NCBI RefSeq assembly: GCF_006345805.1
Contig: NC_043002.1
Span: 54,870,001 to 54,934,000, forward strand
Source of the DNA: Octopus sinensis
Taxonomy: Eukaryota
Reading direction: 5' to 3'
Length of the DNA: 64,000 nucleotides
The notes under the pieces were generated by a model that saw nothing but the letters and a program-made list of their open reading frames with translations, was not told the DNA's origin and ran no database searches. Shown in pieces: positions 9,271 through 63,367 of the stretch; the first letter of the stretch is position 1, and each line of letters starts with the position of its first letter. Made by a program: the position numbers and the translations under genes.

Positions 9271-9339
9271 TTAATAATTAAGGATGCTACAAATGACACC
9301 ACGCTTACTGGTGCCATTTGTAGCACCCTTAATTATTAA
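9271..9339. repeat. 31-bp-arm hairpin, 7-nt loop
   Basis: ttaataattaaggatgctacaaatgacacca / tggtgccatttgtagcacccttaattattaa, 2 mismatches. Confidence 0.9.
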
Positions 9340-9626: not shown

Positions 9627-9799
9627 ATATGCTTTATTTTAAGCAGCAGAAAATTCAAAAATCTGTTACTTGAGTTTCTCGTTGCCGTTCATCAGACAGT
9701 TTTTGCTAGAATCTAGATTCTAGCAAAAACTGTCTGATGAACGGCAACGAGAAACTCAGAGTAACAGATTTGTTGAATTTTCTGCTGCTTAAAATAAAG

Positions 9800-9804
<5 letters not shown>
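9627..9804. mobile_element. Zero-loop palindrome of a PLE-terminus-like element (family H3) with an HHR on each strand
   Basis: ~88-bp arms centred at 9714/9715 (gctagaatct|agattctagc); right end runs into (TA)n. Confidence 0.85.
9730..9767 (+). ncRNA. Minimal type-I hammerhead ribozyme motif
   Basis: CUGU-CUGAUGA-A-CG(GCAA)CG-A-GAAA-CU(CAG)AG-UA-ACAG; predicted cleavage after GUA at 9763; mirror copy on minus strand ~9663-9699 lacks one stem III base. Confidence 0.75.
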
Positions 9805-22850: not shown

Positions 22851-24528
22851 ATATAAAATGGAATGGACGACTTTATTTAAAATCACTGCAATTGTTTCCA
22901 CACATTTTTGCATCCCTGTGGTACATTGATGAGATGTTGAGCAATTATGAATCAACATCTTACCGCAGGTGTAAAAATGTGTCAAAACAATCGTAGTGAT
23001 TTTAAAAATAAAGATTGTCGTTCATTTCATTTTCTATCATTTATCTATTTCAATAAACTCCTGATCGGAGGAGCATTTTACATTGTATGATAACATCAGG
23101 TAGCCAATAACTGTGGATGGGCTTTGCATAGCATTCGATAAAGGTTTTTACTCGAATCTTATTTAACTCTGTGTGTGTGTGTGTGGTGGTGGGGGGGGGT
23201 ATGATGTCATGATGTCGAGCTCACTGTGAGTTCTGTCAAACGGTCTAATTTCAATTCCTGGGTTGGTTCCTGTCACACCAAAATATTCTTTGGTGTTGGA
23301 GCCGTGCATAAGTGGCAATGCTTTGTTTTGTGACGCAGGGCTAACATAAAATTAACCTTAAAAGGCTGTAAGAAAATGAGGTTATTTAAATATTTCAATG
23401 GTTTTCAATTTGAGGAATACATATTTCGGCGTCCGTGAATGCCATAGCTGAGATTCTTTATTTTCTGGTTCTGCAATCAGGCCACAAGACAATGAAATGG
23501 AGTACACGTTGGGCGAGAACCTTGATGCGGAGAATGATGTGTTTGTTTAGAAAAACTTTCTAAAGTTTGCAAAAAATAGCGAAGTTTAGCCTCTCCAAAT
23601 CTTGCGTGCAGTAGGCAAAGTTTTTTTTTCTACGAGAGTTCCGGACCCCAGTTATGAACTTATTTGCATACAGCTAATCAGAGCTCAACTATCAAACTAA
23701 TTTATGAGCGCGTGACAAGTGATGGGCGATAAGATAAGGTCACTTGGACAAGGAATGACCGTGTTTCTTTTCTCTTTTAATAATTCTTGTTCTTGTTTCA
23801 ACTATGGCTGCCTCTGCTTAGTTATTCGTGTTGTTGTTTACTTTCTAAAACAGTAAGGGGAGGGGGTTGCTCGCACATCACCCTCTACCCGCATTTTTCC
23901 CATCCACATCTTTACCATAAGGGGCCCTAACAAAATCCGATAACAGGTATAGATGCAAATCTATCTAATTAATTGTCTCCTTCTAAAATCAGGCATAACT
24001 TGGCGAGTGTTCGACTTGCAACACCGTTTTTCATATTGAGCTTACTTGGTAGAGTGTGTTTGTTAACTTGACATGGTCAAGGTGAGTTCTGTTTGGTTAT
24101 ATGCAAACGAGTTCATTACGAGGGTCCGGATCTCATGTGGGGAAAAAAATTTGCGTGCAGTAGTTGGAAATAAAGCTGATTCCGTAAATTCTATTTGTGT
24201 GTGTGTGTGTGTGTGTGTGCTTCTCTAGTTGTTGTCGTGAGGATGTGGAGATAAGGGGAAACGGGGGCTGGGCCAGTAGCATGGAACAGAAAGACGACTA
24301 GTCTTCTGGATGTAACTTGTTAGCTGCAGCTCCGGTCTTTCATCAATTATGATGGCCTAGCACACACACACACACACACACACACATATCTATGTGTGCG
24401 TGTGTATATCTATGTATGTTCATATATATATTTATATGTGTGTCTGTGTGTATATATTTCATATTCTATGTAAATATATTCGTGTATATACATATATATA
24501 TATATACATCTATCTGTGTGTATGTATT

Positions 24529-32642: not shown

Positions 32643-32888
32643 ATATTTTTATGGTCTTTATGACCTATAGGTGTTTCCATTGCACAGATTACAGGGAGTT
32701 GTAGATGCAACATGGCACGATTTTCAGTGCAGCTTATTCAGGGTTATATCCATTTAGCTCGCTTCGAAACTAGCCAAATGGATGGGCTCTGAAGAAGCTG
32801 CACCAAAAATTGTACCAGGTTGCATCTGCAACTACCCGTAAGCTGTGCAGTTGAAACACGTGTATGTCATAAAGACCATAAAAAATAT
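32643..32888. mobile_element. Diverged zero-loop palindrome (family H5) with extended-stem-II HHR on each strand
   Basis: ~120-bp arms, roughly 80% identical by eye, centred on ttcgaa 32763-32768; right end runs into (TA)n. Confidence 0.8.
32784..32869 (+). ncRNA. Type-I hammerhead ribozyme motif with long stem II
   Basis: CUGAAGA (32789-32795), AGCUGCAC...GUGCAGUU stem II with inner GUUGCA/UGCAAC hairpin, GAAA (32853-32856), palindromic ACACGUGU stem III, GUA; stem I decayed (consensus of both arms UGACC/GGUCA). Confidence 0.7.
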
Positions 32889-44070: not shown

Positions 44071-44528
44071 TGGCTGCTCTTTTTTCCTTGCCATAATTTC
44101 CGTAATTTAAATTTTTTTACCTTGACTTCATATCTGTTTACTAAACAAAGTACCAGTCATACATTGGTGTTGTTCCACTCCTTTCTTCACTTTAAATTAT
44201 ATATAATACATCAGTCATTCAGTGTCGAGACAAGTCTCGTTTCTTACTGATAACTGTTTTCGATAAAAAAAAAAGTGACATCAAAACTTGAACCAGTAAC
44301 CACCATTTATCTGGCCATCTACTTATTTCATGGGGAACAAATTGCAGCCTTTCTCTTTTCATTCCCCACTCTCTATCTATCTCCAAGTTTCAACCTCTCT
44401 TTCTCTCTCTCCCCGTGTTTCCCCACCTCTCTCAAGAAAGCCCACCCGACTGTGTGACCTTTAATAGAAGTCCTTCATATCAGATAACTATGGCTTTAAG
44501 CTTATGGCGCGGACATCGAGAGAGGAGA

Positions 44529-45462
44529 GGTGGCTGAACACTCCACAGACACGTGTACCCTTAATGTACGAGGGGATGTCAAAAATTATCCGCACTTTCA
44601 TCGCGACATATCTTTATTATTGTCACACTGCCTTCAGCGCATGGTTGGTACTATTGTGGTTACATGACCGAAGTTTGAACCTGGTCGCGCCATTTTTCTT
44701 TCTGGCTTTACAGTGTAAGCATGGCCGCTCCACTAACAATGTGCACCAAAGAAGAACAAAGTGCAATGATCCGATTTCTCTGGAAAATGGGTGTACGATC
44801 AACAGTGCAAGACACAGTGCTTCGCTGTCCAAGAAACTGAAGCCAGCAATTGGCACCAAACGCCAAAGCCTATTGTCGAAGGAAGTTTTGTTGCTGCAAG
44901 ACAATGCTCGCCAACACACGGCCGCCCAGACCGTTGAAACCATTAACCAATTGGGATTTGAGGTACTGGAACACCCTACCTTCAGCCCAGATTTCGGCCC
45001 TTCCGACTATTATACCTTTGAACCGCTCAAAGATGGTTTACGAGGGCGTCGATTTCCTACGGATGATGTGAAGAAAGCGGTGCATAAATGGCTGCACAAC
45101 CAACCGAAAACCGTCTTCTTGGAAGGAATATGCAAGCTTGTCGACCGCTGAGACCAAGTACATCGAAAAGGAAGGAGTCTATACAGAAAAATAACTTGTT
45201 TATCCCTTGCTTTTGGGTAAATACATTGGAAAAACAAGAGCGCGTATAATTTTTCTCTCCCCCTCGTAGTTCTCGGGGAGATTCAGCATGACATACAGAA
45301 TATGACAAGGCTAGCCTCTTGTGAATTACAGGTACAACTCATTTTTGTCAGCTGAGTGGACTGGAGCAAGGTGAAATAAAGTGTCTTGCACAAGGACACA
45401 GCGCGCCACCGGGAATCGAACTCGCGACCCTACGAACGTGAGCCGAATATCCTAGCCACTAA
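44529..45462 (-). mobile_element. SINE family C split by a mariner insertion
   Basis: acgtgtacccttaatg|TA...TA|gttctcggggagattcagc rejoins the family consensus. Confidence 0.9.
44569..45266 (+). mobile_element. Internally deleted mariner (D34D) transposon
   Basis: TIR cgagggg / cccctcg with TA TSD; N-terminus MAAPLTMCTKEEQSAMIRFLW at 44721, then deletion to C-terminal DNAR...SPDFGPSD with exactly 34 residues between the Asp residues. Confidence 0.95.
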
Positions 45463-61682: not shown

Positions 61683-61946
61683 CTTTATACTTTGATACTT
61701 TGATAGGTTTCGGCCATTATTGGCCCAGGCCATGTCTAACTTAATAGCACCACCTGGTGAAGTCTTTCAAGTCAGAATTTGGGCACTATGGCCCACTCAA
61801 GTAGAGAGTTATTGTATATATATATATATATATATATACATATATATATACATATATATATACATATATATATATTATATAAATTATATCATACATATAT
61901 ATATATATATACATATATATATACATATATATATATACATATATAT

Positions 61947-61977
<31 letters not shown>

Positions 61978-62049
61978 ATTATATATATATATATATATAC
62001 ATTATATATATATATATAATACATATATATATATATATATATATATAAC

Positions 62050-62084
<35 letters not shown>

Positions 62085-62211
62085 ATATACTATATATATA
62101 TTATATATATATATACATATATATATATTATATATATATATACATATATATATACATATATATATATATATAATATATATATATAAAATATTATATTATA
62201 TACATATATAA

Positions 62212-62514
62212 TCGAGACAAAACCACTATTTTAAAACCAACAAGGAAAGACTTAATCAATACATAAAATTTTAATATAAATTAAATAAACCGCCACTACA
62301 AATGTTTCATGTCTGCTCCGACAATCTTCAGGTGGATTTCGATCTTCTAATCAGTATCAAAATTTGATACTGATTAGAAGATCGAAAATCCACCTGAAGA
62401 TTGTCGGAGCAGACATGAAACATTTGTAGTGGCGGTTTATTTAATTTATATTAAAATTTTATGTATTGATTAAGTCTTTCCTTGTTTGGTTTTAAAATAG
62501 TGGTTTTGTCTCGA
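62212..62514. mobile_element. Near-perfect palindrome (family H4) with an HHR on each strand, inside (TA)n
   Basis: ~150-bp arms centred near 62362 (tatcaaaatttgata); right arm continues as an unpaired tail to ~62610. Confidence 0.9.
62390..62432 (+). ncRNA. Minimal type-I hammerhead ribozyme motif
   Basis: CCAC-CUGAAGA-U-UGUC(GGAGCA)GACA-U-GAAA-CA(UU)UG-UA-GUGG; predicted cleavage after GUA at 62428; identical mirror copy at 62293-62335 on minus strand. Confidence 0.85.
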
Positions 62515-62620
62515 ATTATATTATATAATATTTTACTATAAAATTGGATTTAACCCTAAATCTGATTTTTCCCTGTAATTTTGGATTCATTCCCTAATAT
62601 TTATTATTATATATATACAT

Positions 62621-62666
<46 letters not shown>

Positions 62667-62687
62667 CTTATTATATATATACTTATA

Positions 62688-63060: not shown

Positions 63061-63170
63061 TTTATATATATTTATATATATATATATATACATATATATT
63101 TATATACATATATATATTTATATACATATATATTTATATACATATATATATTTATATACATATATATTTA

Positions 63171-63367
63171 TATAACATACGGGGGATCAGCCATCTGAAT
63201 GTGGCTAGGGTCAGGGCGGGGTGTTGGGGGTGTTACTGATGCATTTAGCCCCAGGCGAACATCAACGTCACCAGAAGGGCTGACACCATCCCTAAATGCA
63301 TCAGTAACACCCCACCACCCCGCCCTGACCCTAGCCACATTCAGATGGTGATCCCCCGTATGTTATA
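63171..63367. repeat. GC-rich inverted repeat, ~77-bp arms, 43-nt loop, inside (TA)n
   Basis: tataacatacgggggatca...ctgatgcatttag / ctaaatgcatcag...tgatcccccgtatgttata. Confidence 0.9.

Follow-up and report, generated by a model that had tools for sequence, protein, structure and literature searches.

EN+ Penelope-like elements (PLEs) are described as carrying an inverted 5′-truncated pLTR together with a tail (PMC8557442, PMC3846280), and intron retention is a described hallmark of these elements. Pairs of hammerhead motifs on opposite strands, 100-700 bp apart, have also been noted in PLEs, where even dimers of the minimal hammerhead are reported to cut poorly (PMC4209133). Self-priming on an antisense template has been proposed for both palindromes and intron retention, with a call for further experiments (PMC3846280), and the significance of intron retention has been termed unknown (PMC8557442). 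In Drosophila virilis Penelope the pLTR contains the start site, a short first exon and a 75-bp intron that begins 46 bp after the start and ends beside helix I of the hammerhead (PMC2377424, PMC4209133); most D. virilis Penelope elements are described as keeping this intron. Anolis Poseidon (PAc) nicks and extends both target strands in vitro, with reverse transcription starting at two internal sites that bracket the tail; the anole hammerhead cleaves only with protein, its cleavage is dispensable, and the protein is predicted to be a dimer (PMC11167929). Elements of the Hydra clade are generally under 3 kb and are recognized by DKT, RWK, a CxCX5C linker, CxxC and CxH, without CCHH (PMC8557442). 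Animal non-LTR retrozymes (bioRxiv 10.64898/2026.07.22.740005), which are short, hammerhead-bearing, non-coding and pLTR-related, are described as head-to-tail tandem arrays.

The locus described here lies in a window of 64 kb (the whole stretch of DNA that was analysed) and is very probably a young insertion in which two end-pieces of a Hydra-type PLE stand head to head and both lack the intron; it was likely generated by twin reverse transcription of the 5′ end of one spliced mRNA. As an inverted repeat it comprises a left arm at 62212-62361 (150 nt) and a right arm at 62363-62514 (152 nt), and the palindrome is far beyond chance. The initial annotation had described a palindrome of about 300 bp with arms differing only by single-base indels. 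The palindrome is real, and its arms are indeed free of substitutions and differ at two single-base indels, each in a short homopolymer run and with the base absent from the left arm; the element is nevertheless longer, for comparison with family sequences carries the right arm some 95 nt past 62514, to about 62609, and this extension had been overlooked, as had a splice junction in each arm. Both ends of the element grade into (TA)n, and with (TA)n on both flanks a target-site duplication is unreadable here. No further copy accompanies this single head-to-head pair (62212-62609) in the 64-kb window. Coordinates are collected in the table.

Features of the palindromic insertion (positions are those of the window; a point marks features without strand)
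Feature	Position	Strand	Remarks
Left flank, (TA)n-rich target microsatellite	61815..62211	.	Start approximate
Short (tail-less) arm	62212..62361	-	18 nt of exon 1 fused to exon 2, to the proximal end point; outer end indistinct against (TA)n; listed as L018, 5′ extent -18, 3′ end of the short class
Mirror hammerhead	62293..62335	-	Motif inspection; predicted cut 3′ of 62297 on the - strand
Left-arm exon 1/exon 2 splice junction	62343..62344	-	Identical junction
Head-to-head junction	62357..62367	.	11-nt near-palindrome occurring naturally in exon 1, with 5 bp on each side of centre base 62362
Long (tailed) arm	62357..62609	+	24 nt of exon 1 fused to exon 2 (parent 5′ UTR)
Exon 1/exon 2 splice junction	62380..62381	+	1249-1314-nt GT-AG intron at the same point in 12 long loci
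Type I minimal hammerhead	62390..62432	+	Motif inspection; predicted cut 3′ of 62428
PLE tail	62515..62609	+	One arm only; 82-95 nt; soft boundary, first 13 nt resemble TA repeat
Right flank, (TA)n-rich target microsatellite	62610..62682	.	End approximate

With the inverted pLTRs described for EN+ PLEs the locus shares a head-to-head copy of the 5′ end, a palindromic junction, a tail on one end only, an AT-rich target and a pLTR hammerhead, the inverted copy being 5′-truncated as in those elements. It differs from published accounts of EN+ PLEs in that both arms are intron-less, no ORF body lies between the repeats, the tail measures 82-95 nt in this family as against 30-40, and the 5′ ends of the family halt at a fixed upstream limit instead of being randomly truncated. 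In contrast to retrozymes, whose general make-up it resembles, it consists of one dispersed pair, arranged head to head and unequal at its ends, and it is not classed as a retrozyme.

Comparison of the right arm with its own 2.72-Gb genome returned 1267 candidates, and scoring of 40 of these yielded at least 69 matches. At least 23 genomic places, the window's own included, match the arm at 100% over all 152 nt, which bears out the youth already attributed to the palindrome. Among all 65 spliced loci found in the first 100 of 300 exon 1 matches (contigs C1-C7), which form the sample used throughout, 46 carry a two-armed palindrome, and nearly all arm ends run into TA repeats. The centres of these palindromes vary and their arms are unequal, so that a fold-back artefact, a possibility raised by the initial annotation, is excluded as a general cause. 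For the window locus itself a fold-back library or assembly artefact is scarcely credible: the assembly does contain scattered single-base indels, and it is the source of the evidence for this locus, but the arms are unequal, their end points are family-specific, and similar arm-to-arm joints occur in contigs of two other runs. A more diverged subfamily (L216, L222, L287 and L024; 87-89% alike) also has head-to-head pairs and retains the hammerhead core.

Long copies of the element were found with a pattern extending upstream of the arm. The parent copy L071, on the minus strand at G000:C4:78072500-78082000, forms a partial tandem whose unit measures 6178 bp. In it a hammerhead and tail are followed by an ATG (exon 2 +283), the reverse transcriptase (RT), a linker, the endonuclease, a 3′ UTR and exon 1; next come an intron of 1291 nt, another hammerhead with its tail, and finally (TA)n. 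The hammerhead-bearing repeats, 6178 bp apart, bracket the ORF in the manner of a pLTR-forming partial tandem, and the second tail stops at the same point as the long arm in the window, whose exon 2 portion is 99% identical to the parent copies L066, L070 and L071 over 227-229 nt. The ORF of about 2.6 kb is disrupted by frameshifts in L071, and no intact ORF was present in the 13 long loci checked, where assembly indels may contribute to the frameshifts; these long copies with broken ORFs are candidates only for the active source. The 3′ UTR and the intron of L071 have internal repeats in common.

The closest named proteins to the parent are from Octopus species (57-89% local identity). A model of the RT, built from an 11-sequence alignment (pLDDT 78), has TERT (3du5) as its best PDB match (E 1.8e-9, TM 0.54) and the YRDD motif is present; on this model the parent carries a telomerase-like reverse transcriptase. 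Downstream of the RT there are VVYKC...YIGST motifs, and Atlas feature matches of the C-terminal part (0.96-0.97) include GIY-YIG clusters, with PF01541 in 18% of one cluster, which points to a putative C-terminal endonuclease of GIY-YIG type. Neither an RT nor a GIY-YIG match was returned by Pfam (four parent ORF pieces and the 11-member alignment) or by a PDB sequence search.

Several motifs of the Hydra clade can be recognized in the parent, namely DKT, CTCRDKSKC (the CxCX5C linker), CYLC (CxxC) and CRH (CxH). A CCHH pattern gave no match in three frames of the endonuclease, no cysteine pair lies between the GIY-YIG half-motifs, and insertion is into (TA)n, the preference of the Hydra clade. 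By its motifs, the absence of CCHH and its (TA)n targets, the element fits best as a Hydra-type PLE, with which it also shares the hammerhead. It differs from the clade as characterized in PMC8557442 by having KWK in place of RWK (6 of 10 aligned relatives do carry RWK), a 3′ UTR that is long and rich in repeats, a 1.29-kb intron and a 6.2-kb unit; the 6178 bp are to be read against a figure of under 3 kb that is given there as a tendency and not a strict criterion. The Hydra section of that paper makes no mention of an intron or of spliced copies. The Neptune and Nematis clades were considered and rejected, as the CX2-5CxxC linker and the CCHH endonuclease motif are both absent, and a first label of Neptune was abandoned after the Hydra definition. 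In miniature elements derived from DNA transposons (MITEs) the terminal inverted repeats are equal and the unit has a constant length, and this candidate is contradicted by the unequal ends, variable centres and splice junction. At L071:6078-6250 an asparagine-rich (AAT)n stretch lies between the RT and the endonuclease, a position in which an asparagine-rich stretch is described for Adineta PLEs (PMC3846280).

The intron of the long copies (about 1.29 kb) sits 9 nt upstream of the ribozyme, between the bases equivalent to 62380 and 62381, with a GTATGT donor and a pyrimidine-rich acceptor ending in AG. Its GT-AG ends are present in 12 of 12 long loci, one of which has an extra donor further upstream. 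In the window both arms carry the exact exon-exon junction, and the source must therefore have been a sense, processed RNA. Genome-wide there are 300 exact matches to the exon 1 end, of which 30 run into the intron (donor type), leaving about 270 spliced by subtraction (of the 100 listed among the 300, 85 are spliced), and 84 matches to the exon 2 start have the acceptor in front of them. Intron retention is thus found in the 30 donor-type and 84 acceptor-type matches, and not in the window copy or the approximately 270 spliced arms; the missing intron marks the window copy as a variant product of its family and not as another family. When match lists were compared by eye, no acceptor-type arm was found near any of the 65 spliced loci. 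At L259 (G000:C13:68184550-68185450) the two arms have in common an unusual junction, in which exon 1 is followed by the final 10 nt of the intron. Whereas truncated pLTRs in inverted orientation, tails on one side only and hammerhead pairs on opposite strands are already known from PLEs, the spliced origin of these stubs is what is new; no report of intron-less PLE stubs was found in the literature searched, which consisted of main texts and included few subscription papers, so that a prior mention is possible.

The upstream limits of the arms suggest where the RNA begins. Among the 115 arms in the 65 loci, the splice junction is reached by 92; 87 arms end at -16 to -33 and none extends beyond -33. 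Position -27, the A in a TCACT word, is the end point of eight arms, and for Adineta PLEs a similar initiator-like site has been named (PMC3846280). Of the exact matches extending to -34, all 15 continue into the intron, and three spliced matches mismatch at that base. From these genomic sequences we infer that transcription starts near -27, at the initiator-like site some 27 nt before the intron donor, with a first exon of about 27 nt. The arrangement resembles that of D. virilis Penelope in its pLTR start site, its short first exon and an intron ending beside hammerhead helix I, although here the intron is about 1290 nt long and would begin about 27 nt after the start. Common to both is that splicing alters helix I, which in the present family is predicted to be lengthened (-15.9 kcal/mol spliced versus -10.3 kcal/mol unspliced).

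The spliced copies appear to have arisen repeatedly. They could in principle derive from a one-time intron-less master stub that spread as a non-autonomous MITE-like or retrozyme-like family, possibly via antisense or read-through transcripts; such spread would suit the high copy number and near identity of the stubs, the prevalence of one centre type (12 of 23) and the tandem palindromic units at one locus (L064). When haplotypes were defined at nine recurrent sites and spliced loci were compared with 19 intron-bearing loci, however, five haplotypes, the commonest among them, proved common to both. With at least five haplotypes shared between spliced copies and intron-bearing parents there can be no single intron-less master, and the widely varying centres and arm lengths, the unequal ends and the head-to-head, not tandem, arrangement of units likewise make this origin improbable. 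The tandem array at L064:4220-6326 (G000:C905) is made of 581-bp palindromic spliced units, for which local amplification or an assembly effect is possible.

Within a locus, the two arms agree closely. Across the 46 pairs, 296 of 298 site comparisons are concordant, where 84 disagreements would be expected if the arms were independent; the arms of L090 disagree at 2 sites. In 9 of the 46 pairs both arms carry the same locus-private substitutions, and the older locus L024 has 9 private substitutions in both arms. Arm-to-arm conversion after insertion could partly account for this agreement.

The following sequence of events is proposed for the formation of such palindromes. Transcription would begin at the initiator-like site, and the RT-endonuclease would nick both strands of a (TA)n target and reverse-transcribe the 5′ end of the same spliced mRNA twice, with two start sites internal to the RNA, one on either side of the tail. 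On a spliced mRNA, only about 170 and 255 nt would be copied back to the cap. The two cDNA ends would then pair through the self-complementary terminus of exon 1, and repair would yield the palindrome. Full-length copies would have to be made from a read-through RNA, starting in its downstream terminal repeat, where the intron is still in place; this would explain intron retention. Both-strand nicking and two tail-bracketing starts are the in vitro behaviour of PAc; Poseidon is another clade, however, and the PAc tail lies inside the ORF and not, as in the present family, in the 5′ UTR. The passages on PAc in PMC11167929 do not link this mechanism to palindromes or splicing.

The distribution of the tail is remarkably regular and bears directly on the number of priming events. 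A tailed and a tail-less arm are combined in 45 of the 46 two-armed loci, the sole exception (L099) passing the script cut-off by a few bases, in six of six acceptor-type pairs picked from the list of 84, and in all 20 two-armed loci among 30 sampled from a second family. An alternative to two priming events is a single one on the same spliced RNA, after which the cDNA 3′ end would fold back and copy itself and the endonuclease would trim one tail. Fold-back accounts directly for identical arms and shared private variants, and self-priming and endonuclease resolution of tails are both published guesses (PMC3846280, PMC8557442). The asymmetric pairs, 20 in number, in which one arm is truncated within exon 2, are more discriminating: the truncated arm is the tail-less one in 12 and the tailed one in 8. 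As a folded-back strand cannot supply a tail that it lacks, the latter 8, with a complete arm that has no tail, require either a second priming or an additional step in which the first strand is cut and rejoined. The tail rule, these 8 pairs and the in vitro behaviour of the anole PLE together tip the balance modestly towards twin priming on one RNA, while fold-back with trimming is a possible but rather unlikely route. The junctions themselves do not separate the two, since either route would produce the same microhomology there. Twelve of 23 two-junction palindromes centre on the 11-nt near-palindrome of exon 1, and their centre base splits 6:6, as expected from repair of a mismatch between annealed cDNA ends; fold-back with either arm made first also fits.

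Extended to the whole family, the twin-priming proposal holds that hundreds of stubs record both-strand priming on one sense RNA from two internal starts, that spliced mRNA can give rise only to tiny intron-less palindromes, and that full-length elements arise only from the unspliced downstream repeat. For this broader statement the arguments on either side seem evenly balanced. If true, one mechanism would cover intron retention, head-to-head palindromes and the one-sided tail of PLEs, and the antisense-template model would be ruled out for these structures.

Each arm also contains a hammerhead, and here the initial annotation was accurate in its description of an intact motif on both strands and of its unstable stem III. 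The motif has a 4-bp stem I, the CUGAAGA and GAAA core, a stem II of 4 bp whose base carries a U/U juxtaposition, and a stem III of the form ACA-UU-UGU, with a GUA triplet that ends at 62428. These core nucleotides and stems, the NUH rule and the short near-palindromic stem III place it among the type I minimal hammerheads, of the dimer type that PMC4209133 reports for PLEs. Variants in the family keep the core and the NUH rule, and in one of them stem III is fully self-complementary; the dimer helix is predicted to be weaker for the window haplotype, at -2.9 kcal/mol versus -6.4 kcal/mol for this variant. Rfam returned 0 matches for the whole window at the gathering score, and unconstrained folding of the monomer was no better than that of shuffled sequences (z 0.1-0.7). 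A motif scan of the 64 kb gave these two hammerheads as its sole hits, the scan being strict enough to overlook a hammerhead palindrome at 9627-9804.

It had further been suggested that a transcript running outward from the centre could cut itself after 62428, whereas read-through would give a long dsRNA as a substrate for ADAR or Dicer; on this reading the locus would be a functional host element with a regulatory duplex. That read-through RNA would lock the ribozyme is upheld by prediction (-245 kcal/mol for the hairpin versus -4.5 kcal/mol for the hammerhead fold), and a hairpin of such stability, if transcribed, together with the intact core and the variants that keep the core and the NUH rule, one with a self-complementary stem III, would be compatible with a functional host element. 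A locus-specific switch is nonetheless very improbable. The window copy is one of hundreds of equivalent recent retrotransposition stubs; its + arm begins 3 nt downstream of the putative start base and lacks the intron, which makes transcription outward from the centre unlikely; the two ribozymes lie on opposite strands, so that a dimer is impossible within one RNA; and an intact core is expected from youth alone. PLE minimal hammerheads, moreover, cleave poorly even as dimers (PMC4209133), the anole's only with protein (PMC11167929). Contigs of four presumed-RNA runs cover the family, but they stem from many copies, perhaps of other species, and A>G differences in them are therefore unreadable as editing. 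The hammerhead is probably cargo of the parent 5′ UTR that is inert at the window locus.

Arms that begin at the cut site were also sought. All seven matched arms are true truncations at +48/+49; in a control pattern, about 11 of the first 100 of 149 matches begin at +52 to +55 and most others at +56 to +60. As seven cut-site starts are comparable to neighbouring positions, an enrichment of cleavage ends cannot be claimed. A large class of arms starts at exon 2 +56 to +60, immediately 3′ of the ribozyme (L264-L293, for example L265, L286 and L287), and often has at its centre tens of bases of (TTTTA)n or (TTTA)n that repeat the last template word and resemble reiterative, telomerase-style RT slippage. 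Stalling of the RT in the ribozyme or trimming of cleaved RNA may underlie this class.

Intron retention and the formation of head-to-head palindromes are stated open questions for PLEs, and spliced stubs bear on both. In this young family, whose arms number about 270 spliced and 84 unspliced, counting and a single reaction in vitro can put the models to the test, and its stubs mark the putative start site of the element without recourse to RNA data. For genome annotation, hairpins of this kind are to be treated as insertion by-products, and not as regulatory ribozymes unless expression data support such a role. The window locus is in itself an ordinary by-product, while the family provides a useful record of mechanism.

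Other repeats are present in the window. The palindrome at 63170-63365, the sole one of its kind in the window, lies in (TA)n with extra sequence on its right; its arms measure about 75 nt each and are separated by 41 nt, and a canonical hammerhead core was not seen in it. Older or shorter inverted repeats (69-84% self-identity) are found at 32646-32884, 1819-2112, 22851-23037 and 9271-9339, the first two of which contain hammerhead-like words and may be decayed stubs of a like kind. In ORF lists covering the window's final 24 kb and the 10 kb beyond it no host coding exon was evident, and an open reading frame at 44468-45151 resembles what we take to be a fragment of a mariner-type transposase. 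The hammerhead palindrome at 9627-9804, with a tailed arm that continues leftwards, belongs to the second young family (377 candidates), in which 20 of the 30 sampled loci are two-armed. A splice junction is not evident in that family, and its arm 5′ ends fall at the A of an initiator-like word that is present in longer copies.
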